A stretch of 54,166 bases of DNA from Dehalococcoidia bacterium (GTDB lineage Bacteria; Chloroflexota; Dehalococcoidia; GIF9; UBA5629). A model generated the notes under the pieces. The model was not told where the DNA came from, did not search any database, and saw nothing but the letters and a program-made list of their open reading frames with translations. The number at the start of each line of letters is the position of its first letter. Positions within the stretch are counted from its first letter, which is position 1. Positions 1,672 through 30,657 of the stretch are shown piece by piece. Made by a program: the position numbers and the translations under genes. The stretch lies in the NCBI GenBank assembly GCA_049694415.1, contig JBAVQV010000021.1, forward strand, positions 1 through 54,166, written 5' to 3'.

Positions 1672-2394
1672 CTACTTTATAGTTATCTTTACCTCAACGG
1701 AGGTACCAGGGATAAGAATGTAACTTCCAGGGTTCTCAATAGTAATTTTTACGGGTACCACCTGTGCCACCTTGATGAAGTTCGCCGTGGTGTTGTTCTG
1801 GGGTATAATTGAGAACGTTCCAGCGGTAGCCGCAGCGATGCCTTCCACGTGCCCCTTCAAAACGGCACCGCCGAGGCTGTCAACGGTAATCTGTACTTCT
1901 TGCCCCGGCCTGAGACGGTAAATATCTCCCTCAGCTACATTGGCCAATACCCATGTCTCCGAGATATCGTAGACCGTTACTATCGGTTGACCCGGACTAA
2001 CTACGGCGCCGGGATAAGTCCAGACCGCAGCCACATAACCGTTAACCGGTGATTCAATATTGCTACGACCTATGGGTGTATCTTTTAATCCTTGCATATT
2101 CATTGGATTGTCGGAGCGAGGCGTACCGACGATGGCGATTCTCTGTCCCTTTTCCACATAGCTGCCATAATCGACCTCAAGGCTGATTATCTGACACGGT
2201 GCCAGCGCGCCAACAGATACTAATGGTGCTGATATATTTGCGTTATTGGTACTTACGTATTTATAGTTCTGATACCAAAGATAAGCGCCAAGAGTTGCAC
2301 CTCCAATAACAAAGACGCAGGCTACAAAGAAAATAATCTTGCCTGTTCTTGTCGAGAGCATCGATTTCATTCTGTCACCCAATTTATTTGCCAT
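1672..2394 (-). CDS. HlyD/EmrA-type membrane fusion (adaptor) protein
   Basis: 240 aa with an N-terminal TM helix (IIFFVACVFVIGGATLGAYLW) followed by a beta-rich barrel/lipoyl-like region. It ends 18 nt upstream of the MFS gene. Confidence 0.7.
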   Translation of the reverse strand: MANKLGDRMKSMLSTRTGKIIFFVACVFVIGGATLGAYLWYQNYKYVSTNNANISAPLVSVGALAPCQIISLEVDYGSYVEKGQRIAIVGTPRSDNPMNMQGLKDTPIGRSNIESPVNGYVAAVWTYPGAVVSPGQPIVTVYDISETWVLANVAEGDIYRLRPGQEVQITVDSLGGAVLKGHVEGIAAATAGTFSIIPQNNTTANFIKVAQVVPVKITIENPGSYILIPGTSVEVKITIK

Positions 2395-2431
2395 AACACA
2401 TGCCTCCGAAGTAGTTATAATTGTCCAGTTA

Positions 2432-4111
2432 CTAGTCAGCGCTGTTTAGTGACCTGGCGGGCGTATTGCCTGTTCCCAGTAATACTTTTTCGCCTTCACT
2501 CAAGCCAGATAAAATCTCAGCCTGCGTCCGGCTTTGCAACCCCACTTGCACCTGACGTTGCTCTATCTGACCTGGCTTGTCTTCTTTAAGCACGTATACC
2601 CAACTCTCAGTTCCCTGCACATGTAAAGCACTGTTGGGTATAAGCAGAACATCCTTATGCTCATCGACAAGAATTTCGGCCGTAGCGGTCAGCCCTCCTG
2701 TAAGATATGGAGCCGCCTCGGGACCGAGTGTAATTTCAACTTTATAAGTACCGGTGCCTGTCTGTAATGTCCCATAAGGTGAAATGAATTGTACCTGGCC
2801 GTCAAGTGTCTTGCCGGGAAACGCGTCAATCAGAACGGTTGCTTTCTGGCCCTTTGATACTTTAGCCACATCGATTTCATCTACTACGCCTGTCATGGTG
2901 ACGGCGCGTGTGTCGGCTAGCTTCAGCACATATACATCGATAGGTAATCCGGTTACCGAGTACCTTTGAGTAATCATGTCTCCTTCGTGTAGATTTACAT
3001 CTACAACCTGTCCATCAAATGGTGCCAGTAATTCAGTTTTGAGCAGCGCTTGTTTGGCTCGGTCGAGGTTGATGAGGGCCGTCTGGATGTTGATATTGTA
3101 ATCGCGCTGGGCTTTCAGGTTAAGTCCCTGCATATAGGTGGAAACATTTTCTTGAAGCACCTTATCTCCAAGTTCAAGGTCATGCATAACGATTTGCAGT
3201 GTTTCGTTCAGCTTTAAGGCGTCGACATCTTTTGAGCTGGCCATTTGTTTTGCTTCTCCAAGTTCAGTGAGCGCTTCATTTATGATGGTGAAACTGGTGC
3301 AGGTATCCGGGCAGGAATATGCTCCTGGGGAATGAGTAATTCGCTTAACTATGGACTGTGTTTCAGTCATATCCGTTAATAACGATTCCAGCATCTTGCT
3401 TGCCTGGCTATAATTACCTTCGCCAATTTGTTCCTGGATTGCCGAGATATTATCAACCTCGTTAGTCAGCTTCACGATAGCAGTATCTACATCGTAACTT
3501 GACATTACTTGCTCCGTTAACTCATTGAGCTCGGTTCTCAGGTTGCGATATTCAGGGTTAATATACACATTTTTGGCGGCATCGATATCATATTTTGCCA
3601 TTGCTATTTGGGAAGCTGCCGGCTCAAATTCGCCTTCAGCCAGTAAGGACTTTGCTTTCTGGATTTCGCTAGTGGCGAAATCAAAGCGGAATAAAGCGAC
3701 GGCATCGCTGTAGAAAGACGGAACGCGCGTGCAACCACAGCAGACCGTCTGCACCACGTTGTTTATTGCCAGTTCCAGCGCATACTGTGCGGATTCTGTT
3801 GACATCTTCTGAGTGGCATCGTCTAATTTGGCAAGCAAAGCGCCGGCTTTAACCAAATCGCCTTTCTTAACATATATCTTTTCAATTCTGGCGCTATAAG
3901 GAGGAGTGAACATAGTGGCGTCGAAATAGAGATTGACCGCATCCGGCATTTCAATATATCCGTTAGCCTCTACCTTTACTTCAAGGTCACCCCTTTTGAC
4001 GGCAGCTATGGTCTGCATCTCAGTGATGGGTTGTCTGGTGGCGCAGCCGGTAAGCGAGATTGATAACACCAGCAGGGCAGCTAGTATGATGGTATACGTT
4101 TTTTTATTCAT
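2432..4111 (-). CDS. Lipoprotein periplasmic adaptor (HlyD/RND-MFP-like) with a long helical insert
   Basis: 559 aa with signal peptide and lipobox LTGC. The C-terminal LLAPFDGQVVDVNLHEGDMI and beta-barrel region are typical of efflux adaptors. A central region of about 250 aa is helical. Confidence 0.6.
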   Translation of the reverse strand: MNKKTYTIILAALLVLSISLTGCATRQPITEMQTIAAVKRGDLEVKVEANGYIEMPDAVNLYFDATMFTPPYSARIEKIYVKKGDLVKAGALLAKLDDATQKMSTESAQYALELAINNVVQTVCCGCTRVPSFYSDAVALFRFDFATSEIQKAKSLLAEGEFEPAASQIAMAKYDIDAAKNVYINPEYRNLRTELNELTEQVMSSYDVDTAIVKLTNEVDNISAIQEQIGEGNYSQASKMLESLLTDMTETQSIVKRITHSPGAYSCPDTCTSFTIINEALTELGEAKQMASSKDVDALKLNETLQIVMHDLELGDKVLQENVSTYMQGLNLKAQRDYNINIQTALINLDRAKQALLKTELLAPFDGQVVDVNLHEGDMITQRYSVTGLPIDVYVLKLADTRAVTMTGVVDEIDVAKVSKGQKATVLIDAFPGKTLDGQVQFISPYGTLQTGTGTYKVEITLGPEAAPYLTGGLTATAEILVDEHKDVLLIPNSALHVQGTESWVYVLKEDKPGQIEQRQVQVGLQSRTQAEILSGLSEGEKVLLGTGNTPARSLNSAD

Positions 4112-6771: not shown

Positions 6772-7803
6772 ATGTTGAAAGGTTTAACTGCAAGAAGAGA
6801 AGCTGTTCTGAAAATAATAGTCAGCGAATATGTCGATACGGCAGTACCGGTAGCTTCGGAAACTATTTTTCGTAATTACAAACTGGGTGTAAGTTCGGCA
6901 ACTATTCGTAATGATATGGCCTATCTTGAGGAGGCAGGCTATATTGCTCGCCCCCACACCTCAGCTGGCAGCGTGCCTTTGGATAAAGGTTATCGCCATT
7001 ACGTTGAGTCGTTGACTAAAAAGACTGAACTTAACGTGCAGGAACAAGATCGAATTCGAAAACTTTTCAGCGAGGTGGAAAAGGAATTTGAGAAATGGTT
7101 GAAGCTGGCAGCGGCTATCGCGGCAAGCCTGGTTAAAAATGCGGCTTTGGTTACGTTGCCCAAGCCGAGACAGTGCCGGTTTAAACACTTAGAATTGGTA
7201 GCCTTGCAAGAGTTCATGTCCCTAATGGTCTTGATACTTGGCGAGGCGATACTCAAGCGGCAGCTTTTATCCTTCGAGGAACCGGTAACGCAAGAACGGC
7301 TAGCAATTATGTCTAATAAGTTGAACGCCGTTTTTTCAGGATTAACGGGCTCCGAGATTTTGGCTAAGAAGTTGGAGCTTCCTTCGGAAGAGGCACAAGT
7401 GACTGAAGCCGTGATTGATATGATGTCTGCCGAGGACGAGTTGGAATACGAGCAACCTTATCTTGAAGGGTTGCGCTTAATGCTGGGACAGCCCGAGTTT
7501 GCTGAAAAGGACAGGATGTTGAGCATTATGGAACTGATGGAGACGAAGGATTGGCTTAGCTCAGCTTTCGGGCGGCGGTCGGACGATTTTGGAGTGCAGG
7601 TGGTGATTGGTGAAGAAAATCGAAATGAGACATTGCGTGATTTGAGCTTGGTTTTCAGCCGATATGGTATCCCTGACCAGATTGGCGGTACCATTGGTAT
7701 AATCGGCCCTACCCGTATGAATTATCGCAGAGCTATTTCTACAGTGGACTACATATCGGGGATATTGAGCGATTTAGTGACTGGAGTTAGCCGTAGCGAT
7801 TGA
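6772..7803 (+). CDS. hrcA: Heat-inducible transcription repressor HrcA
   Basis: The N-terminal winged helix (REAVLKIIVSEYVDTAVPVASETI...SSATIRNDMAYLEEAGYIARPHTSAGSVP) is diagnostic. The gene precedes grpE-dnaK. The ORF track begins at GTG 6763 inside CIRCE; ATG 6772 has better RBS spacing. Confidence 0.9.
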   Translation: MLKGLTARREAVLKIIVSEYVDTAVPVASETIFRNYKLGVSSATIRNDMAYLEEAGYIARPHTSAGSVPLDKGYRHYVESLTKKTELNVQEQDRIRKLFSEVEKEFEKWLKLAAAIAASLVKNAALVTLPKPRQCRFKHLELVALQEFMSLMVLILGEAILKRQLLSFEEPVTQERLAIMSNKLNAVFSGLTGSEILAKKLELPSEEAQVTEAVIDMMSAEDELEYEQPYLEGLRLMLGQPEFAEKDRMLSIMELMETKDWLSSAFGRRSDDFGVQVVIGEENRNETLRDLSLVFSRYGIPDQIGGTIGIIGPTRMNYRRAISTVDYISGILSDLVTGVSRSD

Positions 7804-7825: not shown

Positions 7826-8413
7826 TTGGCTGAAGAAAGGGAGACGTTTGATGATAAAGTATCTAATATGGCCGAGGTGCATGATAGCGAGTCTTTAGCA
7901 CAACTCTTGGCTCAGGAGAAGGAGAAAGCCGAAAGATATTTGGCCAACTGGCAGAGGGCTGAGGCAGATTTTAGAAACTACAAAACACGTGAAGAACAAG
8001 GAAAAAAAGATTTAGTAAACTGGGCTAACTCCACACTGGTCTGCGATATATTGCCAGTGCTTGATTCTTTTGACCGTGCATTTGAAGGGGTTACCCCTGC
8101 GGGTAAAGGCCTGAGTTGGATTACCGGCTTTAAACAAATTCAAAAAATGTTGTTAGATGTTTTAGGCAAACATGGGCTGACAGAAATGAAGTGCGTTGGC
8201 GAGACATTCGACCCGAGCCTTCATGAAGCAGTAGTTCAGCGCGATGGTGCGGAAGGTTTGATACTGGATGAGGTTCGAAAAGGATACATGATGAAAGACA
8301 GGTTGATTCGTGCGCCGCAAGTCGTGGTAGGGGCGGGTGGCGAATCACCGAACGCTGAAGCGGCTAAAGCGATTGAGGAAAATTCAATAAAGGAAACTGG
8401 GGCAGAAAAATAG
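7826..8413 (+). CDS. grpE: Nucleotide exchange factor GrpE
   Basis: 195 aa with the pattern YLANWQRAEADFRNYKTR...DILPVLDSFDRA...FDPSLHEAV. It has a TTG start 5 nt after GTAGGAGGC. Confidence 0.9.
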   Translation: MAEERETFDDKVSNMAEVHDSESLAQLLAQEKEKAERYLANWQRAEADFRNYKTREEQGKKDLVNWANSTLVCDILPVLDSFDRAFEGVTPAGKGLSWITGFKQIQKMLLDVLGKHGLTEMKCVGETFDPSLHEAVVQRDGAEGLILDEVRKGYMMKDRLIRAPQVVVGAGGESPNAEAAKAIEENSIKETGAEK

Positions 8414-11048: not shown

Positions 11049-11816
11049 ATGCTTTATTTAGGCACGTCCGGCTTTAGCTACAATGATTGGGTAGGTAATT
11101 TCTACCCCCGCGGTATGTCCCGTAGAGACTGGCTTGGTTACTATGCCCGGGAATTCAATGCCCTGGAGCTAAATTCTACATATTATGCTTTACCTAAGCT
11201 TTCTGTTTTAGAAGCCATGATTCATAAAACGGGAGAAGGTTTTTTGTTTTCGGTCAAGGCGAATCAGGAGATGACGCATCAGCGTCAGCAAGATAATAGG
11301 ATTTTTATGGCTTTTGTTCACATGCTTCAACCTTTTATCGATGCCGGTAAGCTGGGTTGCGTGCTGGCTCAATTTCCTTTTAGTTTCGGCTTCAGTCGCC
11401 AGAATTTTTCCTATCTGGCACTTTTTCGTGAATGGCTGAGAGATTTGCCATTGGTGGTAGAATTTCGCAATGCTCAGTGGCTGAAGCCGGAGGTCTTTGA
11501 TTGGCTGCGAAAGCATGACCTTGGTTTTTGCTGCGTCGATGAGCCACAGTTACCCAAGCTGTTACCTCCTTTGGCTGAGGTTACCAGCCACATTGGCTAC
11601 GTGCGTTTTCATGGACGTAATGCCGCTAAGTGGTGGCAGCATCAGTACGCTTATGAAAGATATGACTACACGTATTCGGCCGAGGAGCTTAAGGAATGGC
11701 TGCCACGGATAAGCAAATTAAATAGTCTGGCGGAAAAGACTTTCGTCTTCGCTAATAATCACTGGCGTGGTCAGGCAGTAAGCACTATACGCCAGCTGCG
11801 TATGATGCTTGACTAG
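11049..11816 (+). CDS. DUF72 (UPF0759) family protein
   Basis: The N-terminus MLYLGTSGFSYNDWVGNFYP and the later RFHGRN...W motif are typical of DUF72. Confidence 0.8.
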   Translation: MLYLGTSGFSYNDWVGNFYPRGMSRRDWLGYYAREFNALELNSTYYALPKLSVLEAMIHKTGEGFLFSVKANQEMTHQRQQDNRIFMAFVHMLQPFIDAGKLGCVLAQFPFSFGFSRQNFSYLALFREWLRDLPLVVEFRNAQWLKPEVFDWLRKHDLGFCCVDEPQLPKLLPPLAEVTSHIGYVRFHGRNAAKWWQHQYAYERYDYTYSAEELKEWLPRISKLNSLAEKTFVFANNHWRGQAVSTIRQLRMMLD

Positions 11817-12747: not shown

Positions 12748-13633
12748 AATATTGCAGGTCACCGAGTCAGGGGTTCGCCTGGATAAATATCTAGCCAGAG
12801 AATACCCTGAATTATCTCGCTCTGTTCTTCAGAAATTAATCAAACAGGGCTGTATTTTAGTCAATGACTTTGCAGCCAAACCAAGTCAGAAATTGAGCGT
12901 TGGAGATAGGATTTATGTTGCGTTGCCGCCTCCCGAAAAAGTTTCCCTTGCTGCTGAACCTATTCCGGTAGATGTGATTTATGAAGATGACGACCTGCTG
13001 GTGATATGCAAGCCGGCTGGACTGGTCGTTCATCCTTCTCCGGGACATACTACTCATACCCTGGTCAATGCCCTTTTAGCCCGTTGCCCCGATTTGGCTG
13101 GCTTTGTGGATGCCATGCGTCCGGGTATAGTTCATCGTTTGGATAGAGATACCTCGGGGTTGATGATTATTGCCAGGAATAGTCACGCCCAGCAGTACCT
13201 GATTAATCAGTTCAGAGCCCGGTCAGTGTTCAAAGGTTACCTTGTCTTGGTTAAAGGGAAGCTGACACCTGATCAGGGTATTATCGATGCTCCTCTCGGC
13301 CGTGACCCATCTAACCGCAAACGCATGGCGGTCGTAGCTAGTGGCAGACAAGCCAAGACCGGATATAAGGTTAAGGAATATCTGGATAGGTACACTTTGC
13401 TTGATGTCACTACTGAGACCGGCCGTACCCATCAGATAAGAGTTCATTTATCAGCTATCGGCTATCCGGTCATCGGTGATGCGGTATATGGTGTCAGGTC
13501 ACCGTATGTTAAGCGACAGTTCGTCCATGCTTATCGGCTGGGCTTCCGTTTGCCGTCCAGTGGAGAATATCGAGAATTCATTTGCGAGTTACCTCCGGAC
13601 TTAAAACAGGCTATGGCATTGATAATCGGATAA
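12719..13633 (+). CDS. rluD: 23S rRNA pseudouridine synthase, RluA/RluD family
   Basis: S4-like N-terminus (RLDKYLA), the catalytic HRLDRDTSGLM motif, and GRTHQIRVHL. Confidence 0.85.
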   Translation: MVVPPKTEVKILQVTESGVRLDKYLAREYPELSRSVLQKLIKQGCILVNDFAAKPSQKLSVGDRIYVALPPPEKVSLAAEPIPVDVIYEDDDLLVICKPAGLVVHPSPGHTTHTLVNALLARCPDLAGFVDAMRPGIVHRLDRDTSGLMIIARNSHAQQYLINQFRARSVFKGYLVLVKGKLTPDQGIIDAPLGRDPSNRKRMAVVASGRQAKTGYKVKEYLDRYTLLDVTTETGRTHQIRVHLSAIGYPVIGDAVYGVRSPYVKRQFVHAYRLGFRLPSSGEYREFICELPPDLKQAMALIIG

Positions 13634-14131: not shown

Positions 14132-14590
14132 TTGGAGAAGAAGCCAAGAGAGTTAGCTTTGGAGTACGCTGGTTTCTGGATTAGACTGGGGGCAAGTGTT
14201 ATTGACCTCTTAATTTTAGGTTCTGTTTCTGGAATTATAGCCTACTTTTTTCCCGCTCCCGCGATATGGTTGACAACCGGTATAGTCGTATCAATTGTTT
14301 ACTGGCTGGGTTTTTGGGTATGGCGGGGTCAGACGCCGGGTAAGATGGCTGTGGGGATAAAGGTCATTAGAACCGACAGTTCTCCAGTTAAGTGGCAATG
14401 TGCGGTACGTCGTTGTTTAGGATACGTCGTCTCGGCGATAACGCTGTTCATCGGCTTTATCTGGGTAGCGTTTGACGGTCGCAAGCAGGGAATACAGGAT
14501 AAGATTGCTGATACTTACGTGGTTAAGCTGCCGGTAAGACAGTTGGTTTTAACCGGGCCTTATGCTCGAGGCCAGGCTAGTTATGGTTGA
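14132..14590 (+). CDS. RDD-family membrane protein
   Basis: YAGFWIRLGASVIDLLIL, three TM helices, and a C-terminal GRKQGIQDKIADTYVV typical of RDD proteins. Confidence 0.7.
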   Translation: MEKKPRELALEYAGFWIRLGASVIDLLILGSVSGIIAYFFPAPAIWLTTGIVVSIVYWLGFWVWRGQTPGKMAVGIKVIRTDSSPVKWQCAVRRCLGYVVSAITLFIGFIWVAFDGRKQGIQDKIADTYVVKLPVRQLVLTGPYARGQASYG

Positions 14591-19923: not shown

Positions 19924-20643
19924 CTAATAGTTTCCAGATATCAGTTTTATCAGATTAACGCGAACTTTGATGTCCTCATTTTTGGTTACTTGCTGAGGTT
20001 CCTGCTCAGTATATGGTACGGATACAGTTTTAGTGACCTTGACCGTAGCTTTCCCGGTCTTAGTCAACCCAACACCATCTTTGGCTATATCCCTATACAC
20101 GACCTGTGTCCCGTCATGGGCTGTCAGGGTGACAACCCAGGTGTCGTTCGGCCCCGCCGATTGTTGCATTTCTACAATTTCAGCGACCGCGTCAATAGGT
20201 GTCTCATTTCCCTTCACCGTTTCGTAATAAGTATAGGGGACATAATAGGGGTCGCCCCAGTAGTCATACTCAATTGTGTAGCCCGAGCGCGCTACCTGTG
20301 TCGATTTTTCCGCTAAATAGCCTTGGTAGACTTTAATGGTTTCATCTTGTGTCACCTGTTCTTGTCTCTCTTTTTGCACCGGGACCATTACCGTCTCAGT
20401 TTTTTGTACTGTTTTTGTTGCTGAAAACAGCGGCAGAAAGAGCAGAAGCAGCACTCCAATAACGCCGACTATTACTATCCAAGGACTTGCCCCAAACCAT
20501 TTTGCCCCTTCAGGTTTTTCCCTCACTACGACCGTTCTCCTGATTACCCTGGTTGGCGGCTGTGCTCTTAGTCGTGTCTTGGGTTGTCTCACCCCGGTTG
20601 GCTGGTTTCTTACTTGAGTTTTGGGTAGTTTCGCTTTGGCCAT
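19924..20643 (-). CDS. Single-pass membrane protein, paralog 1 of 3 (basic N-tail, conserved C-terminal domain)
   Basis: 239 aa with an R/K/P/T-rich tail, one TM helix, and a domain with IKVYQGY...TPIDAV...W(V/I)(V/I)TLT...YRDI. It is the most divergent copy and carries a Tyr-rich insertion. Confidence 0.6.
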   Translation of the reverse strand: MAKAKLPKTQVRNQPTGVRQPKTRLRAQPPTRVIRRTVVVREKPEGAKWFGASPWIVIVGVIGVLLLLFLPLFSATKTVQKTETVMVPVQKERQEQVTQDETIKVYQGYLAEKSTQVARSGYTIEYDYWGDPYYVPYTYYETVKGNETPIDAVAEIVEMQQSAGPNDTWVVTLTAHDGTQVVYRDIAKDGVGLTKTGKATVKVTKTVSVPYTEQEPQQVTKNEDIKVRVNLIKLISGNY

Positions 20644-20719
20644 AGCCCATATCTCCTTTTCCTGATAATTAGCAATGCTGAATTAAATATAAACCGAATT
20701 CATTACACTTGTCAAGACC

Positions 20720-21391
20720 TTACCTTTCTACACGATAGGCTTGGCAACCGAATTCCAATAGATACTGCATGAAATTGACGCGAGATTTAACCTCTTTCTG
20801 TGTGGTCACCTCCTTAGGAACCAGTTCGGAAGTTGGAGTGTATACTTGGGCTCCTGTGTTATCCACCCTAATCGTTCCCGTGGGTGTCAAATCTTCGGTA
20901 ACTATATCCCTGTATATAGTCACCGTGTTGTCAATGTCGGTCAAGGTGATAACCCAGGTTTTTGTTCCCCACTGCGGTGGCCCAATCGCTTTGCTCTTGG
21001 TCACTATTCCATTGACTGCGTCAACAGGTGTCGTAGTGCCATTTATATCGAGCATGTATCCTTGGTAGACCTTAATAGTTTTCTGTCCAGGTGCTGCCGG
21101 TGGCAGCTCCTTTGTTGGCCCCGGCACCATTATGGTTTGAGTTTCTGCTACCGTTTCTGTTACTGTGCACAGCGGCGCAAAGAGCAAAAAGGCTAGAAGT
21201 GCACCGCCACCTATTACCTGCCAAGCCTTGAGGCCAAACAACATCATCCCCCTGGCTTCTTCCGCATCAGCTTCTTTCAAATCAAGCTCATCCCAATCAG
21301 GCTCTACTCTTCTCCGCACTACTTTTGTTGGATTATACATCCTGGTTTTAGCTGAGCTTCTACTCGTTGGGCGTGGGCGTCTCCTCGCCAT
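20720..21391 (-). CDS. Single-pass membrane protein, paralog 2 of 3
   Basis: 223 aa with the same architecture. Long stretches are near-identical in DNA to paralog 3, for example GTCAATGTCGGTCAAGGTGATAACCCAGGTTTTTGTTCCCC. Confidence 0.6.
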   Translation of the reverse strand: MARRRPRPTSRSSAKTRMYNPTKVVRRRVEPDWDELDLKEADAEEARGMMLFGLKAWQVIGGGALLAFLLFAPLCTVTETVAETQTIMVPGPTKELPPAAPGQKTIKVYQGYMLDINGTTTPVDAVNGIVTKSKAIGPPQWGTKTWVITLTDIDNTVTIYRDIVTEDLTPTGTIRVDNTGAQVYTPTSELVPKEVTTQKEVKSRVNFMQYLLEFGCQAYRVER

Positions 21392-21593
21392 AACTTATGC
21401 CTCCTTTCCCAGATAATTATCAGTAGTGCATTCAATATAACCAGCTTTATTAAGTTTGTCAATACTTTGAGCTAGAGATTCTGTGGTCATTTTGGAGAAT
21501 TCCTATTTTTTACACGTCTGCAGCCAGACGGTCAATATGACTCTGGTTCAGTAAGTAAAGTTAATAGGGTGTGGGCACGGACTCGCAACCGGA

Positions 21594-22205
21594 TTAGAAT
21601 ATCCACTGTATAAAATTGACGCGATATTTAAGCTCTTTCTCTTTGGTCACCTCCCTAGGAACCATTTTGGTACTTGGAGTCAATAATTTGGTTCCTGCGT
21701 CATCGGTTAGGACCCTAAGCGTTCCCGTGGGTGTCAAATCTTCTCTGACTATATCCCTGTACATAGTCTGTATGTTGTCAATGTCGGTCAAGGTGATAAC
21801 CCAGGTTTTTGTTCCCCCCCACGCCGGTGGCCCAATCGCTTTACTCTTGTTCACTATTCCACTGACTGCATCAATAGGTGTCTGAGTGCCATTTATATCG
21901 ATCATGTATCCTTGGTAGACCTTAATAGTTTTCTCTCCAGCTACTGGCGGTGGCATCTCCGTTGCCACTGGCTCATATACCGTTTCTTTTTGTTCTACCG
22001 TTTCTGTTTCTGTGAACAGCGGCGCAAAGAGCAAAACGGCTAGAAGACCACCACCAACTAGTACCTTCCAAGGTTTGTGGCCAAACCACAGTTTCTCCTG
22101 GGCTTCTGGTGGTAACATAAAGCTTGCTCCATGCCTCTCTAACTCGTTCCTACTATACTCTTTCCTAGGTTTCCGTAATATTCTAGTTGGGCGTCGCTTC
22201 TCCAT
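21594..22205 (-). CDS. Single-pass membrane protein, paralog 3 of 3
   Basis: 203 aa. KTIKVYQGYMIDINGTQTPIDAVSGIVNKSKAIGPPAWGGTKTWVITLTDIDN matches paralog 2 almost residue for residue. Confidence 0.6.
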   Translation of the reverse strand: MEKRRPTRILRKPRKEYSRNELERHGASFMLPPEAQEKLWFGHKPWKVLVGGGLLAVLLFAPLFTETETVEQKETVYEPVATEMPPPVAGEKTIKVYQGYMIDINGTQTPIDAVSGIVNKSKAIGPPAWGGTKTWVITLTDIDNIQTMYRDIVREDLTPTGTLRVLTDDAGTKLLTPSTKMVPREVTKEKELKYRVNFIQWIF

Positions 22206-23233: not shown

Positions 23234-23968
23234 ATGAAAAACAGAGGACTACTTATGCTGGCTACTTGCATGGTGCTGGCTACTACGCTGGTAATAACGG
23301 GCTGCGCCAGTCCGGCTCAAGAACATGTCAACAAAGGTAATGCATATTTTAAGCAGGGGCAGTACGATGAAGCCGCTATGGAATACAGTAAGGCGGTCGA
23401 GCTTGACCCACAGCTTGCTGGCGGCTATAACGGCCGTGGGCTTGTCTATCAGACGAAAGGTCAGTTCGATGAAGCCATAGCCGACTTTGACACAGCGATT
23501 GAGCTGGAACCAACAAATGCCGAGTTACATTACAATCGTGGTAACGTATACCTTGAGAGAGGGCAATTTCAAACAGCTGTAGCTGATTATGACAAGGCTA
23601 TTGTGCTTAACCCAAAGTTTGCCATGGTTTACAACAACAGGGGGCAGGCTTATGCCGGTCAGATGCAATTTGACGGAGCCATAGCTGATTATAGTAAAGC
23701 TATCGAATTAGACCCGAAGCTGGCAGTGGCTTATGATAACCGTGGCCTCATGTATCGTGATAAAGGAGAGTTCGACCAGGCTATATCTGACTTCACCAAG
23801 GCTATTGAATTAGACCCAAAGCTAGCCAAGGCATATTTTAATAGGGGTTACGCCTATAACAAGAAGGGCGATAAGACCCAGGCAAAAGCTGATTTGGATA
23901 AGTGTATTGAAATATCCACCGACCCTGCGCTCACCAAAGCAGCCAAAGAGCTGCGAGAGAGATTGTAA
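23234..23968 (+). CDS. TPR-repeat lipoprotein
   Basis: Lipobox ITGC followed by six consecutive 34-aa TPR units (A..Y..AIELDP....AY.NRG..Y...G). Confidence 0.85.
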   Translation: MKNRGLLMLATCMVLATTLVITGCASPAQEHVNKGNAYFKQGQYDEAAMEYSKAVELDPQLAGGYNGRGLVYQTKGQFDEAIADFDTAIELEPTNAELHYNRGNVYLERGQFQTAVADYDKAIVLNPKFAMVYNNRGQAYAGQMQFDGAIADYSKAIELDPKLAVAYDNRGLMYRDKGEFDQAISDFTKAIELDPKLAKAYFNRGYAYNKKGDKTQAKADLDKCIEISTDPALTKAAKELRERL

Positions 23969-24131
23969 GAAGAAATTCGTGATTTTGACTTCGGGAAGTT
24001 CAGGCATGGTTTTCACCCGCCGATAATGCTTGCGCTGCCAATACTAACAAGCGATAACGGTTCTACCAGTAAAAGAGCTTTGCGAAGCGGAATTTGGGCG
24101 AGTGCCGAAGGCACGAACTTCTTATGCTGTG

Positions 24132-25433
24132 TTATATGAGCTGGTGAATATTTGAGGCCTTCCATGATTCTTTATTCTTTTTTTTATCAAAAGATGGAAT
24201 TGCATCAAAAGTAACTTCATCTTCATCTATTATATCAGGTGGCAAATCTGACTTATAACAGAAAAATGATTGCTCATCTTTCGCAATAATAAAACAGAAT
24301 GGATGGTCGCTCCGACCTAAACTTACTTTACCAACAAGTCCCTTTCTTACTTTGCGTTTCTTATATGACAAGTTCTTTAAGTCGTTCTCTTCACCCACTA
24401 GTTTGCTCCACTCAGTTCGGCAAATACTCAGTGCTTCTTTCAGAGAGGATGGCTCCTTATTACCAATGATTTTATTTAAATCATTAACAGTATTTATTAT
24501 AGACTCAGGTACAGTCCATCCTTTTTCATCTCTAACGTATTTGCATAGGACAAGGTGGGCTCTTGCTTCCTTGTATTTCCCCAGTTCCTTACAGAGCATT
24601 CCGATATCTACAAATAGTGATACCATAGATTCAAGTTTCAAATGACCACTAGCAGCTTGGTACATTAGTTTTAAAGCGTCTTCTCTGCGGCCTATATCTC
24701 TAACTACTTTTGCATACTCATAAAGCATCCACCAGTCAGGCTTATAACCACTACATAGATTTTGATAAATCTTTTCTGATTCAGGAAGGTTGCCAAGAAG
24801 ATGGTTTGCTAAGGCCTTAAGTCGCAGGAAGAACTTTTGTTGTTTGGGAAATCGTACTAAAATTTCATCGACTGTATTTATTGCTTCTTTTGCATCTCCT
24901 TTTTCAATAAGTCCATTTATACGGTAGTTATACCAGAGGGATTGGTCACTCCATCCTTCCCTACCCGAATCATCTGTCATAGATTTCGTACTAAGAGAAC
25001 CCGGATCAATTTTAACCACCCATTCATTAACAGTCTCCCAATGATTAGAAGACTTGGCTGATTTTAACACCTTAAAAACTATCATCTTTGCAGCTAAACC
25101 GTCAGGGTTCAAACTCATTATTCTTTTGGCTATCTCTACTACCTTTTCAAGAGGTTCTTCTTCATTGAATTTATCAAGTATCCCTTGGATGTAAGTCCAT
25201 ATAACTTCATTTCGACACCAATCGAAGCCAGGATATTTGACAATCAGTTCATCAGCAAGAACAATTGCCTCATCAAATAATTCTAGCTTCCTGAGACAAT
25301 GAAGAAGGCCCGCACCGTCAAACTTGTCCCCTGGTTCTTCCCATAAATTTCTATAGATTAGAAGAGCTTCTTTGTGATTCCCTGCTTTCCTGAATTCATT
25401 AGCCTTTTGTTTCTGTTCTGTTAAATCAATCAT
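24132..25433 (-). CDS. TPR-like helical-repeat protein with C-terminal degenerate cold-shock/OB-like domain
   Basis: 433 aa. About 350 aa are helical-hairpin repeats (A..Y..L repeat pattern). The last ~70 aa (GLVGKVSLGRSDHPFCFIIAKDEQSFFCYKSDL...DEDEVTFDAIPSFDKKKNKESWKASNI) follow the CSD beta-strand pattern but lack the RNP1/RNP2 aromatics. Confidence 0.55.
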   Translation of the reverse strand: MIDLTEQKQKANEFRKAGNHKEALLIYRNLWEEPGDKFDGAGLLHCLRKLELFDEAIVLADELIVKYPGFDWCRNEVIWTYIQGILDKFNEEEPLEKVVEIAKRIMSLNPDGLAAKMIVFKVLKSAKSSNHWETVNEWVVKIDPGSLSTKSMTDDSGREGWSDQSLWYNYRINGLIEKGDAKEAINTVDEILVRFPKQQKFFLRLKALANHLLGNLPESEKIYQNLCSGYKPDWWMLYEYAKVVRDIGRREDALKLMYQAASGHLKLESMVSLFVDIGMLCKELGKYKEARAHLVLCKYVRDEKGWTVPESIINTVNDLNKIIGNKEPSSLKEALSICRTEWSKLVGEENDLKNLSYKKRKVRKGLVGKVSLGRSDHPFCFIIAKDEQSFFCYKSDLPPDIIDEDEVTFDAIPSFDKKKNKESWKASNIHQLI

Positions 25434-25447
25434 ATTCTATAACTTAA

Positions 25448-26389
25448 CTATTTTTTGAAAACCTCACTTGTTGTCTTAAAATGCAGTTTTGCTACCTTTC
25501 TAAGTGACTCTTTCCCGTACATATCAACAAATTTCTTTGCATTTTCTATAACTGTCCGCGATGAACCTTTAGGCAAGCCAATTTTATATTCATCCGATAG
25601 TCTTGAGAGTTTTTCTAAGAATCTTGCTCGCGATAGAATCGATGCCGCTGCCACAGCTATATGCTGTTCCGCTTTATGCACTTGTATTAGTCTAATCCTT
25701 TTACCTTTTTCCTGAAGTTTCCCAAGGATAAAACTCTCATCTGCAAATTGGTCAGCGATTGCAACTTTACAATCTACCTTAGAAAGAATCTCTTCTATTG
25801 CTTTTGCATGCCCCCAGGCGAGTAATGTATTTAAATTTTTCTTTTCCTTTTTAAATTGTTCGTATAAGTCATTATATTTCTCTGGAGATATTTCGATAAT
25901 CGCAAAACGCCCTTTACATATTTTGGCTACCTCTTGAGCAAGTTCTAAGTTCTTACTATCACTAAGTTCTTTGCTATCCTTGACGCCACATGCGATCAGA
26001 GCTTTCGCAGATTGCTCATCTACATAGACACCAGCACTAACCAAGGGACCGAAATAATCGCCCTTACCAGATTCATCTGTACCAATTATGGGAAATCCTA
26101 ATTCAACACCCTTCTTATTTGAATCAAATGATATTCCTTTTCCCTCTATCAAGGTTTGGATTTTTATAGCATTTGCTCCACCTTTAAGTTGTGAATAATC
26201 AATTTTCAAGGCACCTTTTTTGTTCTGATAGATTCTAATTACTCCTGACCAGTCAAGAATAGATACGGTAAACTGCAAACCATAATCGATCAATTGATAA
26301 TCTGAAATATTGATATTATCGACTGCCAGAATCGATTTTATATGTTCATATATTTCTAGAAGTCTGTCGCCCTGCTTCATGTCATTCAT
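25448..26389 (-). CDS. RNase HIII-type ribonuclease H (N-terminal TBP-like domain plus RNase HII/HIII catalytic domain)
   Basis: 313 aa. IIGTDESGKGDYFGPLVSAGVYV is the RNase HIII active-site motif (D105, E106). IADQFAD and HKAEQHIAVAAASILSR supply the remaining acidic residues. An N-terminal domain of about 95 aa precedes the catalytic core, as in RNase HIII. Confidence 0.8.
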   Translation of the reverse strand: MNDMKQGDRLLEIYEHIKSILAVDNINISDYQLIDYGLQFTVSILDWSGVIRIYQNKKGALKIDYSQLKGGANAIKIQTLIEGKGISFDSNKKGVELGFPIIGTDESGKGDYFGPLVSAGVYVDEQSAKALIACGVKDSKELSDSKNLELAQEVAKICKGRFAIIEISPEKYNDLYEQFKKEKKNLNTLLAWGHAKAIEEILSKVDCKVAIADQFADESFILGKLQEKGKRIRLIQVHKAEQHIAVAAASILSRARFLEKLSRLSDEYKIGLPKGSSRTVIENAKKFVDMYGKESLRKVAKLHFKTTSEVFKK

Positions 26390-26392
26390 TCC

Positions 26393-27499
26393 TTACTTTG
26401 GGAGTAAATTGAAAAGGTCGTTGAAATAGTCAAATATTTCTTTTGTATCTTTAAATATGGTGTTGACCTTTTCCTCTGCCTCTTCTGGGGAATCAACTTT
26501 GGTAATTTTGCTTTCGTCGCTGTGCATCATAAAGTTTCTGTTCGTCTTGACACATACACCAATTTTTTCGAGCATTGTGTCTGCATGCTTTTCTTCATCA
26601 CAAATAGACTTTCTTTTTGAATTTTTTTTATCATACAGAGCGGAAAAATTGGCATCTTTGGTCTTGGGATAATCTGCTTTGAAAAGACCTATATTAACAA
26701 GAAGTTTTTTTGCAAATCCTTCAAAAGCTTTAGAAGCAGGCATTACTAGAGGGGAAAACTCAGGTAGAGGAATTTTAGTTAAGCAAAGGCATTCTGAAGC
26801 TACAAACCATTTCTGGTCGTAAGATTCAAGATAGGCATAGACATCTCCTATTTTGGTTTTTACACTATTCTCAGCCAACTCTATGAGTTGAGGAGTATAT
26901 TTAGCTGCAAAAAGCTTCAAATTCTTTTCATCGCTTGATATAAATCTGGCTATTACTTCTTTATCTGACGGGCTGGCAATCTTTTCGATCAGGTCACAGT
27001 TATCATTAAAAAGTTTATCCATTTTACCTTGAAGTAATAAAGTACCATTATCGTACTGTGTCAAGGTTAAAGAGGAATTATTTCTGGTGATTTTAGCTCT
27101 ATATTCGATAGCAGAGCTTGGACTTTCAGTAATTTCCACTGTTGTCTCAAGCGTATTTAAAGATTCTTTTATTTTCGTTCTGAGTTCAGGTAGCATAATG
27201 TCATATCTTGTTGCACATGCTTTAATTTCCGGTATCTTATGTTCAAGAAAAGACTGCGGGTTAGTCTCAATTTCTCGTTCCAGATTTTTAAACTCCTCTT
27301 TCAAGCTGTTATGTGGGCCTCCCAGTACGATGCTGCCAGTATGATATATAGTCACTATAGTCCTTTCCCGAATGTTAGATATTTCTAAACGCCAATCATT
27401 GTTGTTATCTTCGGAAGGTTTGACCTGGTACTTTTTCTCTTTGCAATACTCGATAAACACTTGAGATAGCTTTGTGGCATTTGAAATAGATTTAGACAT
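26393..27499 (-). CDS. RnlA/LsoA-like toxin: two TBP-like N-terminal repeats plus C-terminal HEPN RNase domain
   Basis: 368 aa. Two repeats end in (V/L)T(I/Q)Y..G(S/T)(I/L)(V/L)(L)(G/Q)G (TIVTIYHTGSIVLGG and LTLTQYDNGTLLLQGK). The C-terminal helical domain carries the Rx4H motif RNFMMH (R321-H326, nt 26522-26539), close to where I recall the Rx4H motif lying in E. coli RnlA. Confidence 0.6.
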   Translation of the reverse strand: MSKSISNATKLSQVFIEYCKEKKYQVKPSEDNNNDWRLEISNIRERTIVTIYHTGSIVLGGPHNSLKEEFKNLEREIETNPQSFLEHKIPEIKACATRYDIMLPELRTKIKESLNTLETTVEITESPSSAIEYRAKITRNNSSLTLTQYDNGTLLLQGKMDKLFNDNCDLIEKIASPSDKEVIARFISSDEKNLKLFAAKYTPQLIELAENSVKTKIGDVYAYLESYDQKWFVASECLCLTKIPLPEFSPLVMPASKAFEGFAKKLLVNIGLFKADYPKTKDANFSALYDKKNSKRKSICDEEKHADTMLEKIGVCVKTNRNFMMHSDESKITKVDSPEEAEEKVNTIFKDTKEIFDYFNDLFNLLPK

Positions 27500-27539
27500 C
27501 TCTTAAACCCCCTAAAGTATTTCTATGATATAACCTCTG

Positions 27540-27568
27540 ATATAACTTCTTTCATTACTTACTTCCAA
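27540..27568 (-). promoter_or_regulatory. Putative promoter of the AT-rich operon
   Basis: On the minus strand: TTGGAA, a 17-nt spacer, then TTATAT, about 40 nt upstream of the first gene. The RBS AGGGGG lies 8 nt before the ATG. Confidence 0.35.
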
Positions 27569-27691
27569 AGGCATTGCACCTAACAGCAGCATATACAAAC
27601 CTTGAGTTCGCCTAATCAGTTCTACTTTCTTGAATCCTAGCACTGGCGCTATTGGCTATAAAGCCCTCCATCTCCTTTTTGCGGTGGAATG

Positions 27692-30406
27692 CTATTCCAT
27701 CTCGGCCCAGTTTTTGCCCAGCTTGATGTCTATCTTTAGCGGCACGCTGAGCTTCAAGGCTTGAGGCATTATTCTGGACACCAGCTCTTTCATCTGGTCT
27801 ATTTCCTCAGGAGGCACTTCGAAGACAAGCTCGTCGTGAACTTGAAGAGTCATTTTGCTCCGCAGGTTCAACTTTTCCATCTCGCGATGTAGGTTGACCA
27901 TAGCGATTTTGATGATATCGGCTGATGTGCCATGCACCGGCATGTTTATTGCCATTCGCTCAGCAGCTTCTCTGACCTGCCGGTTTGGTGAGTTAATTTC
28001 AGGTATGTAGCGCCGTCTGCCTAACACCGTCTGCACATACCCTCGCTCTCTGGCCTGGCTCTTGGTGGCTTCGATATAGTCTTTGACCCCGGGGTATTTC
28101 TCGAAATAGGCAGTTATGAATTGGGAAGCTTCCTCCCGGCTGAAACTGGTAGCCTGCTCCAGGCCGTAGTCGCTCATGCCGTAAATAATGCCGAAGTTGA
28201 CCGTTTTAGCTACTCGGCGCATCTCTGAAGTCACCTTGTCTGGAGAGACGTTGAAGATGCGGGAAGCAGTGGCGGCATGAACATCCTCGTCTCTGAGGAA
28301 GGTGGCTATAAGCTCCGGGTCCTGTGAGATGTGGGCTAACGCCCTGAGGTCGATTTGAGAGTAATCGACGGATAGAAGTTGCCACCCCGGCTCGGCGATG
28401 ATAGCTTGTCTTATTTTGCCACCCAGCTCGCTTCTTATCGGGATGTTCTGCATGTTCGGCTCGCTGGAGGAAAGCCGGCCGGTAGTTGTGCCTGTCTGGT
28501 TGAAGCTGGTATGCAGCCTGCCCGTTTTGGGGTTGACCAGCGCGCAGAAGGCATCGGTGTAGGTCGACTTCAACTTGGCTAGCTGGCGGTATTGCAGGAC
28601 AAGTTCAATTATGGGGTGAGTGCCCTTTAGTTCCTCGAGCGCCGAGGCTTCGGTGGAATAGCCACTTTTTGTTTTGCGCGGCTTGGGAAGCTTCAGCTCT
28701 TCATAGAGGATTCTGGACAACTGCTGTGACGAGTTTATGTTGAATCTATAGCCGAGACTGTTGTAAACCTCTGCTTCCAGTCTGAGCATCTCCTTCCCCA
28801 GGCTGTGAGACATATCTCGGAGCAGTTCTACATCTACGGCCACACCATTTCTTTCCATGGCTACCAGCACCGGGACTAAAGGCATCTCCACTTCGCTGAA
28901 AAGTTGCCATAATCCCTCTTCTCGTAGTTCGCTGTCGAGCACGCTCTTAAGCCTTAGAGTAATATCGGCATCAGCGCAGGCATAGTCGGCAACCTGTTCT
29001 GTTGTTACCATGGCCATAGAGAGCTGCTTGGCTCCTTTGCCGATTAAGTCGGTGATGGGCGTCATCTCGACTCCGAGTTTATTGAAAGCCAGCGCTTTGA
29101 GCCCGATGGATTTTTCGCCCAGCAGATAGGCGGCGAGCATGGTATCGAAGTTTAAATTCTGAAGCTTTATGCCGTATTCAGCGAGTACCGTCATATCGAA
29201 TTTGCCATTCTGAGCTATTTTGGGGATTTTGGCGTCTTCAAGCACCGGCTTAAGCCTGGCAATGACTTGAGACAATGGCAGCTGGGATATCTGGCTCAGC
29301 CCACGATGTCCCAACGGTATGTAGTAGGCTTCACCAGGCGTTGATGATAGTGAGATGCCGACTAGCTCACAAGCCATAACTTCTTTAGCCGAAGTCTCCA
29401 GGTCAACAGCGAATTCTTTGGCGGCTTGCAACTGGATAATAAGCTTATCCAAATCACGGTCGGTGCTAATTATGTGGTAGTCCTTGCTATAGGTTGGTTT
29501 ACCGGAGACCTCAGTTGGTGCCTTCTCAATTTCCTCGGGCAGTCTGGATAGCAATTGGACGAATCCCAGTTCGCGGAAGAGTTCGACCACTTGATTTCTG
29601 TCGTAAGTGGTGACCTGGCAAGCATCCAGATTCAAGGTTATGGGCACATCGGTAACAAGTGTTGCCAGCTCCTTGTTTCGAAGAACTCGGTCTTTATAGT
29701 CGCGCAGCGAAGTCTGTAACTTCTCAGGTGTTATTTCGTCAATATGGTCGTAGATGCCCTCGAGGCTGCCGAATTGGCGCAGTAACTTGGCGGCTGTCTT
29801 GTCGCCGATGCCGGGGATACCGGGGATGTTATCAGAAGGGTCGCCGGTGAGAGCTTTGAAGTCGGTGAGTTGGCTGGGAGATATGCCGTATTTCTGCTCG
29901 ACACCTGACTCATCGTAGATTACCGTATCGCTGAAGCTTCGCCTGGGCGACATTACTTTGGTGCTGGGTGAGACAAGCTGGAGCATATCATTGTCGCCGG
30001 TAACGATCAGGGTGTCTACGTTTCGCTGGGTAGCCTGTCGGCTCAGAGTACCTAGAACGTCATCAGCCTCGTAGCCGTCGATTTCGAAGGTGGGAATATG
30101 GAAGGCATCTACAAGTTGATGAACTCGCTGTATCTGGCTGATAAGCTCTTCGGGGGCTTTGGGGCGCTGAGCCTTGTAATCCTCGAATTTTTCGTGTCTG
30201 AAGGTCGGTCCGGGACGGTCGAAGGCAATAGCCCAGTGGGTTGGCTTGATTTCATTCAGCACCTTGAGCAAGGTGCTGGCGAAGCCCTGGACGGCATTGA
30301 CCATCTCCCCGGTCTTGGATATTGTTAGCGGAGGGATAGCATGGAAAGCCCGATGAACCAGAGCATTTCCATCGAAGAGCAAGAGCAATGGTTTTTCTTT
30401 AACCAT
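27692..30406 (-). CDS. polA: DNA polymerase I
   Basis: 904 aa with a 5' nuclease domain (LLLFDGNALVHRAFHA), a 3'-5' exonuclease motif (AVDLETS) and the polymerase motifs DYSQIDLR and QVHDELVFE. Confidence 0.97.
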   Translation of the reverse strand: MVKEKPLLLLFDGNALVHRAFHAIPPLTISKTGEMVNAVQGFASTLLKVLNEIKPTHWAIAFDRPGPTFRHEKFEDYKAQRPKAPEELISQIQRVHQLVDAFHIPTFEIDGYEADDVLGTLSRQATQRNVDTLIVTGDNDMLQLVSPSTKVMSPRRSFSDTVIYDESGVEQKYGISPSQLTDFKALTGDPSDNIPGIPGIGDKTAAKLLRQFGSLEGIYDHIDEITPEKLQTSLRDYKDRVLRNKELATLVTDVPITLNLDACQVTTYDRNQVVELFRELGFVQLLSRLPEEIEKAPTEVSGKPTYSKDYHIISTDRDLDKLIIQLQAAKEFAVDLETSAKEVMACELVGISLSSTPGEAYYIPLGHRGLSQISQLPLSQVIARLKPVLEDAKIPKIAQNGKFDMTVLAEYGIKLQNLNFDTMLAAYLLGEKSIGLKALAFNKLGVEMTPITDLIGKGAKQLSMAMVTTEQVADYACADADITLRLKSVLDSELREEGLWQLFSEVEMPLVPVLVAMERNGVAVDVELLRDMSHSLGKEMLRLEAEVYNSLGYRFNINSSQQLSRILYEELKLPKPRKTKSGYSTEASALEELKGTHPIIELVLQYRQLAKLKSTYTDAFCALVNPKTGRLHTSFNQTGTTTGRLSSSEPNMQNIPIRSELGGKIRQAIIAEPGWQLLSVDYSQIDLRALAHISQDPELIATFLRDEDVHAATASRIFNVSPDKVTSEMRRVAKTVNFGIIYGMSDYGLEQATSFSREEASQFITAYFEKYPGVKDYIEATKSQARERGYVQTVLGRRRYIPEINSPNRQVREAAERMAINMPVHGTSADIIKIAMVNLHREMEKLNLRSKMTLQVHDELVFEVPPEEIDQMKELVSRIMPQALKLSVPLKIDIKLGKNWAEME

Positions 30407-30482
30407 TTTCTGAACCGGAATATCTAGTCATCTTTACCGACAACTCCGTGTTTGTAATCTGGCACAGGTTATGTACCAACCA

Positions 30483-30538
30483 ATGTAGCCACGACCACTT
30501 AGGGTCGTGACCACGAGGCTAAAGCCTCGTGGCTACAT
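30483..30538. repeat. Compound palindrome with mutually exclusive pairings in the polA/argF divergent intergenic region
   Basis: The outer 12-nt arms ATGTAGCCACGA (30483-30494) and TCGTGGCTACAT (30527-30538) can pair. Hairpin 1 is CACGACC/GGTCGTG (30490-30509). Hairpin 2 is CCACGAGGC/GCCTCGTGG (30511-30532). The outer stem shares bases with both hairpins. Confidence 0.6.
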
Positions 30539-30657
30539 GCGTTTGGGGCGGTTCTCTCCTCCAAAGAAAAGCCCGATTAGATAACACTCTATCTCATTAT
30601 ATAATAGGTTGACAGCCGTGGTATACTATTTGCTCACCTTGGAAAGGTAGCTTAAAA

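Follow-up and report, generated by a model that had tools for sequence, protein, structure and literature searches.

Background

TOTE conflict systems (Aravind, Iyer and Burroughs 2022) combine, in the account given by a citing paper (PMC12458937), a TPR protein, an OB fold of the cold-shock domain (CSD) type, a TBP-like domain and an effector, and RNase H domains are described there as common among them. They are known from comparative genomics alone, and no experimental study of TOTE or of a gene trio like the one treated below was found in the literature searched. Here we analyze a 54,166-nt stretch of a Dehalococcoidia bacterium genome (contig JBAVQV010000021.1, hereafter the window), in which three minus-strand genes near polA (the trio) encode an RnlA/LsoA-like HEPN RNase (gene 1), an RNase HIII-type enzyme (gene 2) and a TPR-CSD protein (gene 3). 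The trio is probably a TOTE-class RNase module in which an RnlA-like HEPN effector is combined with a dedicated RNase HIII and with a TPR-CSD protein as regulator or sensor, acquired as a three-gene integron-type cassette and now standing as an isolated copy with a decayed attC.

Fusions of the HEPN domains of RNase LS to TBP-like and RNase H domains were reported in the 2013 HEPN survey, where targeting of RNA-DNA hybrids was inferred (PMC3710099). In E. coli, activation of RnlA requires RNase HI, which docks on the second TBP-like domain of this toxin and stimulates its cleavage activity (PMC5308261). The dependence, which a preliminary description of the window, made from the DNA letters, had invoked, is thus documented. 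The active HEPN dimer of RnlA is the canonical dimer, and its residues R255, E258, R318 and H323 matter for catalysis and substrate binding (PMC8266594). The carriage of defence systems by integron cassettes also has published precedent. CALINs are predominant in Archaea and also present in Spirochaetota, Chloroflexota and Bacteroidota; bacteria and archaea are reported to share cassettes of about 92% identity (PMC9668308), while isolated cassettes are received by GWT sites outside integrons (10.1101/2022.09.11.507474).

Domain composition of the three proteins

Gene 1 (368 aa) passes the cut-off of the Pfam model RnlA-toxin_DBD (33 bits, cut-off 27, E 8.6e-8) and gives weak matches to RnlA_toxin and RnlA_toxin_N. 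Among 49 aligned relatives, RnlA-toxin_DBD is matched by all 49, RnlA_toxin by 48, DUF3378 by 27 and HEPN_RnaseLS by 26. The AlphaFold model (pLDDT 80.6) shows two alpha/beta repeats followed by a helical C-terminal domain, and its best 10 PDB matches in Foldseek are all RnlA/LsoA chains, aligned over the full length (E 1e-9 to 1e-4), after which eukaryotic and archaeal TBPs appear in the list. Sequence identity to E. coli RnlA is about 15%. The Rx4H motif reads RNFMMH (residues 321-326, R321-H326), and E260, R321 and H326 are invariant across the family. An alignment with RnlA places K257, E260, R321 and H326 at the positions of its R255, E258, R318 and H323 (PMC8266594), and these four are the predicted catalytic residues of gene 1.

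Gene 2 (313 aa) reaches 201 bits against the NCBIfam rnhC equivalog (TIGR00716, cut-off 161). The acidic DEDE tetrad (D105, E106, D213 and E241) is invariant in 9 orthologues, and in the matches to the RNase HIII structures 4py5 (6e-31) and 2d0a (4e-25) of the PDB, D105/E106/D213 align with D97/E98/D202. The N-terminal domain is probably TBP-like, judging from its position, the analogy with RNase HIII and a shared 'hxhYxxGxhxhxG' motif read by eye. Matches to the Pfam model TBP-TOTE are weak, with 14.2 bits for the window protein (gathering score 27, E 0.034) and 3 of 9 members matching (best E 0.0068). With shallow alignments, a PDB profile search with this domain and a profile-profile comparison with the second TBP-like repeat of gene 1 were both negative.

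The AlphaFold model of gene 3 (433 aa; pLDDT 89.4) consists of TPR helices and a five-stranded C-terminal barrel. The PADLOC model PDLC01170, named 'TPR repeats containing protein fused to cold shock-like domain (OB-fold)', matches the protein end to end (E 1.4e-23), and cold-shock proteins make up 9 of the 10 top PDB matches of the barrel profile (best E 0.0056). Motifs resembling RNP1 and RNP2 (FCFI and FFCYKS) are aligned in the barrel, with the RNP-like aromatic residues F379, F381 and F391 kept. Among 50 relatives, Pfam finds DUF7017 in all 50 (best E 5e-10) and S1CSD-TOTE-2 in 30 (best E 3e-5); the window protein itself scores 24.2 bits for DUF7017 (gathering score 27.5) and 18.4 bits for S1CSD-TOTE-2 (gathering score 27).

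The layouts proposed in the preliminary description are therefore retained for all three proteins: the RnlA/LsoA arrangement of two TBP-like repeats and a HEPN domain with Rx4H for gene 1, a complete RNase HIII with its acidic active-site residues for gene 2, and a TPR solenoid ending in an OB/cold-shock-like module for gene 3. The composition matches the one given for the TOTE class, with a TPR protein fused to an OB fold (gene 3: AlphaFold, PADLOC and PDB CSD matches), a TBP-like protein in the same operon (gene 1: TBPs in Foldseek, DUF3378 in 27 of 49 relatives) and effector nucleases joined to TBP modules, in which both the HEPN residues E260/R321/H326 and the DEDE residues of RNase HIII are invariant.

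Conservation and genomic neighbourhoods

The trio is colinear in 12 independent contexts of Dehalococcoidia, WS2, Spirochaetia, Bacteroidota, Sumerlaeota and archaea, with amino acid identities of 65-90%. For each of the three proteins, homologues with 65-91% amino acid identity occur in Dehalococcoidia, candidate division WS2, Petrotoga, Syntrophaceae, Spirochaetes, Methanophagales, Methanogaster and Aenigmarchaeota; gene 2, labelled 'ribonuclease HIII' by annotation pipelines, is 77-90% identical across phyla. Scored over the fetched loci (L numbers) whose contig extends far enough, the order gene 1-gene 2-gene 3 is kept in L004/L005 (Methanogaster), L006 and L021 (Dehalococcoidia), L007 (WS2, QLTW01000127.1), L008 (Spirochaetia, DCUV01000054.1), L013/L019, L020 (Ga0315279_10001029) and L014, a divergent trio from Cytophagaceae with 40-52% amino acid identity. 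The exceptions are an uncultured Bacteroidetes chromosome in which gene 3 is frameshifted (L002/L003/L011, 10068-11382) and Petrotoga in which it is missing (L001, 10058-10780). Since genes 1 and 2 are intact in these cases, some hosts at least can survive without the TPR-CSD protein. The [G + C] content of the trio lies between 0.32 and 0.40 in hosts spanning 0.29-0.51. The family is rare, as a profile search of 1.8 billion cluster representatives returned 237 related clusters, and the viral contigs searched contain no relative of gene 3, hence no sign of phage carriage.

Of ten relatives 600-770 aa long, nine are fusions of an RnlA-like protein with an RNase_HII-family domain. Such natural fusions are a separate line of evidence that the products of genes 1 and 2 work as a single machine, and they support the view, suggested earlier from the operon, that the HEPN RNase is functionally coupled to an RNase H-class enzyme of its own.

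The recurrence of the trio in unrelated genomes, which the preliminary description had asked about, is likewise observed, and its neighbours include restriction-modification, toxin-antitoxin and nuclease genes. These are a type III restriction-modification system and UvrD in L001, RhuM and toxin-antitoxin genes in L004, RmuC, HicB, a FokI-type restriction-modification system, MNT-HepT and YhcG in L019, and Mrr in L020. In L008 (6111-17087), DUF3800, a beta-flower protein (Bflower), the trio, a Ymh-HEPN with a NucS-like PD-(D/E)xK nuclease, a FitA-like RHH with a PIN protein, an Lcl_C protein and a reverse transcriptase are all co-oriented; this array is a defence island arranged in cassettes, and no integrase is visible in it.

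In L010, from a metagenome-assembled genome labelled archaeon (CAYPTZ010000298.1), a single-gene cassette (2235-2996, plus strand) lies between an attC-like site (2098-2201) and the trio. Read by eye, its product shows a TBP-like N-terminus and a helical domain with RNTVGH (Rx4H); it has no Pfam match, and on this reading it would be a further TBP-HEPN protein.

The insertion at polA

The flanking genes are of the housekeeping type (polA, argF, der, fpg and a TPR lipoprotein), and the clusters to which Der and PolA belong assign the host to the Dehalococcoidia. In the Dehalococcoidia contigs L015 and L016, which are syntenic with the window and 83-88% identical in the flanks, 46 nt separate the TPR-lipoprotein gene from polA (42-46 nt over the close relatives), in place of the 3,731 nt of the window. 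L021 has the trio at this position, and each of its flanks shows 95-97% identity to L015, which is without the cassette. The trio is thus a presence/absence polymorphism at the polA site, and the foreign origin that had been proposed from base composition is upheld. The composition itself differs in the direction stated earlier, with a smaller contrast than single-line counts had given: 36.3% [G + C] in the trio against 46.8% in the remaining window, and 0.345-0.39 against 0.44-0.56 in the flanks when 400-nt windows are used.

Three tightly packed ORFs (open reading frames) were described before, and their spacing is indeed 3 nt and 14 nt. This leaves no space for an RnlB-like gene in the locus, the cassette consisting of three genes, and none of the three proteins matches the RnlB family, in agreement with the absence of an RnlB/LsoB antitoxin gene noted previously. 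The putative promoter attributed to the operon finds no support, because a sigma-70 scan detected no candidate within the 192 nt of spacer that precede gene 1, and the regional count equals the shuffled expectation. The leader that precedes gene 1 holds an AT-rich box, TTATATCATAGAAATA, and a Shine-Dalgarno sequence, and in the alignment of 9 loci it is kept across phyla.

The leader of the window copy alone carries a 12-nt tandem duplication, GA(A/G)GTTATATCA (27526-27549, minus strand), which alters the spacing between the AT-rich box and the sequence upstream of it. In L021, the leader together with the 5' portion of gene 1 (7231-7624, against 27513-27692 in the window) is replaced, giving a mosaic. 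Gene 1 of L021 is 79% identical to that of the window and genes 2 and 3 are 88-89% identical, a contrast which suggests recombination between cassette variants.

At the other end, 97 nt (23962-24058, minus strand) extend from the 3' core site to the stop codon of the TPR lipoprotein. They are missing at the empty site, 99% identical in L021, and encode 'MPELPEVKI', the hallmark N-terminus of Fpg/Nei glycosylases, without being a copy of the host fpg; this stretch may be donor flanking DNA. Searches for direct and inverted repeats around the island revealed neither flanking repeats nor terminal inverted repeats, and no tRNA at the insertion site and no Rfam family in the region were found.

A probable integron-type cassette

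Nucleotide homology to loci from other phyla (83-89%) begins at window positions 27584-27599 and ends at 24054-24114. The limits coincide, in at least 5 hosts, with GTTAGGT or GTTATGT at the start (window 27584) and GTTAT at the end (24058-24054). Integron core sites are cut at G|TT, and the GTTA sites at both ends of the conserved unit fit such a core site. The final 90 nt can be written ATAAC-A-CAGCATAAAAG...CTTTTATGCTG-GGAAC-GTTAT, which corresponds to the R''-L''...L'-R' layout of an attC and overlaps the stop codon of gene 3. The folding z scores of this 3' element range from -4.7 to -5.3 in L007, L008 and L013. In L007, L008 and L010, neighbouring ORF blocks are also followed by sites of like layout with unrelated stem sequences. 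Over seven such sites, 97% of cells pair and both sides change in 9 of 11 L-box pairs, against 29-47% paired in slid controls.

A covariance model built from these seven sites was scanned over 250 kb and gave 14 matches, all co-oriented with the trio and located just 3' of ORFs. Three of them lie outside the training set (L008 14157-14344, L020 9627-9700 and L020 8185-8320), each 18-53 nt after an ORF, and there are none in L015, L001, L002, L004 and L014 or elsewhere in the window. In L008, four co-oriented sites (7855-7936, 11390-11484, 13276-13402 and 14157-14344) divide DUF3800 and Bflower, the trio, the Ymh-HEPN with the NucS-like nuclease, and the RHH-PIN pair, and in L020 the array runs Mrr, unknown gene, trio. 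From these boundaries and sites, the conserved unit looks like a three-gene integron cassette, of which the window copy is isolated and its attC decayed (Table 1).

Table 1. Position of the trio and of the associated elements in the window
Feature	Coordinates	Strand	Description
Insertion relative to the empty site	23962..27692	.	3,731 nt; missing from close relatives
Conserved mobile unit (putative cassette)	24054..27584	-	3.53 kb; 5' core site GTTAGGT (27584-27578), 3' core site GTTAT (24058-24054)
Conserved cassette leader	27500..27584	-	85 nt; alignment of 9 loci and direct reading; AT-rich box and Shine-Dalgarno sequence
Gene 1, RnlA/LsoA-like RNase	26393..27499	-	TBP-like repeats ~1-85 and ~94-175; HEPN ~190-363
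Gene 2, RNase HIII-type enzyme	25448..26389	-	Catalytic domain residues 99-309; N-terminal domain ~95 aa
Gene 3, TPR-CSD protein	24132..25433	-	TPR solenoid (4-358) and C-terminal cold-shock/S1-like OB barrel (363-431); PADLOC, AlphaFold, Pfam
Degenerate attC-like site	24049..24140	-	R''(ATAAC)-L''...L'-R'(GTTAT); overlaps gene 3 stop codon; covariance model 35.6 bits, E ~1e-5

Other features of the window and of the compared loci

Three tandem paralogous ORFs (239, 223 and 203 aa) are found at 19924-22205 of the window (minus strand), each with one predicted membrane helix and a common C-terminal core. A single 231-aa copy occupies the same position in L015 and L021, so the paralogues represent a local gene amplification. 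The divergent intergenic region of polA and argF contains a 70-nt near-perfect nested palindrome, CCAACCAATGTAGCCACGACC...GGCTACATGCGTTTG (30476-30545). This palindrome and another stretch (1720-1821) had been picked as attC by the scanner and were dropped, the covariance model having given no support. A strong 16-bp hairpin with TTAAC...GTTAA flanks (L013 239-329, L019 ~340-430) was also rejected as attC, because it adjoins a Y1 transposase gene and its spacer asymmetry is reversed; it is probably an IS200/IS605 end.

Proposed mechanism

The mechanism proposed for the trio is inferred by analogy with RnlA. The dedicated RNase HIII would dock on the RnlA-like HEPN RNase and license it, as RNase HI does on the second TBP-like domain of RnlA, and the TBP-like modules would bind RNA-DNA hybrids that an invader makes, for example replication primers, R-loops or products of reverse transcription. 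The TPR-CSD protein may fill the regulatory place of RnlB, its TPR solenoid keeping the nucleases resting and its cold-shock domain reading single-stranded nucleic acid. Upon detection, the HEPN domains would form the active canonical dimer and cut mRNA, leading to arrest of the infected cell or destruction of the invader transcripts. The roles suggested in the preliminary description, the TPR/CSD protein as sensor or antitoxin and RNase HIII as co-activator, are plausible in this scheme. Mobility would be provided by integron integrases acting in trans, the Dehalococcoidia copy now being alone (SALIN-like) with its attC decayed.

A bolder version of this scenario is tentative, and we regard it as possible without favouring it. 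The trio would be among the largest integron-type cassettes known (three genes, 3.5 kb, own leader), and attC recombination in trans would shuttle an entire TOTE immune module across bacterial phyla and archaea. The RnlA-like/RNase HIII pair would be ancestral, the need of E. coli RnlA for host RNase HI would be its relic, and the TPR-CSD protein would be a nucleic-acid sensor replacing the antitoxin.

Weighing of the alternative explanations

Several points weigh against a TOTE-class module acquired as an integron cassette. As to the class, the trio is likened to TOTE through the account of a citing paper (PMC12458937), the window proteins stay below the gathering scores of TBP-TOTE, S1CSD-TOTE-2 and DUF7017 (14, 18 and 24 bits against 27, 27 and 27.5), for the gene 2 N-terminus, put down as probably TBP-like, the TBP-TOTE matches are weak and the profile searches negative, and PADLOC covers neither gene 1 nor gene 2 with a model and calls no named multi-gene system at the locus. 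As to the vehicle, the attC-like site of the window is degenerate (z -0.4 and -0.8) and that of L006 also folds poorly. The pairing statistic is partly circular, because the sites were first picked by a scanner that requires pairing. The sites carry an unusual asymmetric spacer and were scored by our own scanner and covariance model, and the divergent trio of L014 and that of L004 have no recognisable attC. The insert exceeds the cassette by about 204 nt, a surplus left unaccounted for by a clean attC x GWT event. Finally, the gene tables of every context list no integron integrase or tyrosine recombinase within 8-10 kb, so the arrangements would be of the CALIN/SALIN type.

The missing PADLOC models and system call, together with the lack of an experimental paper on such a trio in the literature searched, speak for the original proposal of a defence or abortive-infection system not described before. 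This claim fails because TPR-CSD, TBP and effector define TOTE as far as the account in PMC12458937 goes; moreover, Pfam includes the TOTE-specific models TBP-TOTE and S1CSD-TOTE-2, which match genes 2 and 3 weakly, a PADLOC model also exists, and TBP-HEPN and RNase H-HEPN forms of RNase LS have been known since 2013 (PMC3710099). We regard it as improbable. A slightly better case, though still an unlikely one, can be made for an addiction module of toxin-antitoxin type that mainly stabilises cassette arrays or the chromosome, with gene 1 as toxin, gene 3 and/or gene 2 as neutralisers and no dedicated antiviral sensing. RnlA and LsoA are type II toxins (PMC3710099, PMC5308261), toxin-antitoxin is the commonest annotated cassette function in bacterial and archaeal integrons and is array-stabilising (PMC9668308), neighbouring cassettes hold an RHH-PIN pair and MNT-HepT, and genes 1 and 2 persist in two lineages in which gene 3 was lost or frameshifted. 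However, that same loss in Petrotoga and Bacteroidota should kill if gene 3 were the sole antitoxin, a 433-aa TPR-CSD protein and an RNase HIII with a complete active site appear far too elaborate for a simple antitoxin, and the nucleic-acid-binding modules (two or three TBP and the CSD) indicate sensing. RnlAB is itself anti-phage, so that the two readings are not exclusive.

Somewhat stronger, if still on the unlikely side, is the view that the trio is a mobile defence operon and not an integron cassette, the 3' palindrome being a terminator or another structured element and the spread being due to homologous or illegitimate recombination or to other mobile elements. It would account for the unseen IntI, the non-canonical spacer geometry, the trios without an attC-like site (L014, L004) and the oversized insert with its foreign Fpg-like remnant. 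An IS200/IS605 transposase lies near the trio in L019, and the window and L021 have their 3' junction in common, although the insert is missing from L015, a closer relative of L021 than the window is, as would fit homologous replacement. Nevertheless, in no fewer than 5 hosts both limits of the homology lie precisely at G|TTA, sites of unrelated sequence with the same R/L-box layout and AAC...GTT triplets follow unrelated co-oriented ORF blocks, and a terminator does not need conserved flanking TAAC/GTTA boxes. Integrase-less CALINs are moreover the commonest integron form in these phyla (PMC9668308). A host housekeeping RNase HIII operon that merely looks foreign is suggested by the annotation of gene 2 as ribonuclease HIII and by the adjoining polA. 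We consider this extremely improbable and reject it on the empty-site evidence, the operon being missing from relatives that are 95-97% identical; gene 2, absent from close relatives and cassette-borne, is not inherited vertically as expected of a housekeeping rnhC. Identities of 65-90% between bacteria and archaea, a [G + C] content near 36% in hosts of 29% to 51% and the constant linkage to a HEPN toxin homologue speak against it as well. A TOTE-class RNase module acquired as an integron-type cassette thus remains the explanation we prefer.

Comparison with known systems and significance

The trio is a convenient entry point for first experiments on TOTE systems, because it is compact and highly conserved, occurs as natural fusions, has mutable catalytic residues and comes with a clean empty-site control. 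It could also explain mechanistically why RNase H is required by E. coli RnlA. If the attC assignment is true, a multi-gene immune module crosses phyla and both prokaryotic domains as an integron cassette, and the role of integrons as defence biobanks would extend well past Vibrio and clinical integrons.

Among named entries, the PADLOC candidate PDC-M16, for which no mention was found in the literature searched, is touched through its component B: gene 3 matches the PDC-M16B models partly and PDLC01170 over its full length. Since genes 1 and 2 match no PADLOC model, the partners of PDC-M16B must be different proteins. TALON, known from the same phylum as the host of the window, also has TPR-CSD and TBP proteins, but it relies on a NERD nuclease and on a YprA-like helicase whose RNase H domain is inactivated, all missing from the trio.

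RnlA-RnlB and LsoA-LsoB, the RNase LS type II toxin-antitoxin modules active against T4, share with gene 1 the TBP1-TBP2-HEPN arrangement, the Rx4H motif and the conserved Glu, and RnlA depends on an RNase H enzyme, which is bound at its second TBP-like domain. The lack of an RnlB gene sets the trio apart from RnlAB modules; its partner enzyme is a co-encoded RNase HIII of the type 2 fold instead of the host RNase HI, and its third component is a large TPR-CSD protein. With integron defence cassettes (BRiCs and the 'biobanks' of sedentary chromosomal integrons) and with CALIN/SALIN arrangements, it has in common the G|TT core bounds, an imperfect palindrome resembling attC at the 3' end, co-oriented arrays with toxin-antitoxin and nuclease cassettes, the lack of a nearby integrase and an isolated chromosomal copy. 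It differs from them by its size of 3.5 kb and three genes, far above the typical one, by the asymmetric spacers of its attC-like sites and by its hosts, which are Dehalococcoidia, Spirochaetia, WS2 and archaea and not Vibrio or the carriers of clinical integrons.

With TOTE systems, the trio shares a TPR protein fused to an S1/CSD OB fold beside TBP-domain proteins bearing nuclease effectors, the neighbourhoods rich in conflict genes and the RNase H domains. Its packaging as a cassette and its cross-domain spread are, in contrast, not mentioned in the description of the class excerpted from PMC12458937. The architecture class is already described, and what is new here is the proposed cassette and attC architecture, the empty site, the cross-domain spread and the fusion evidence.

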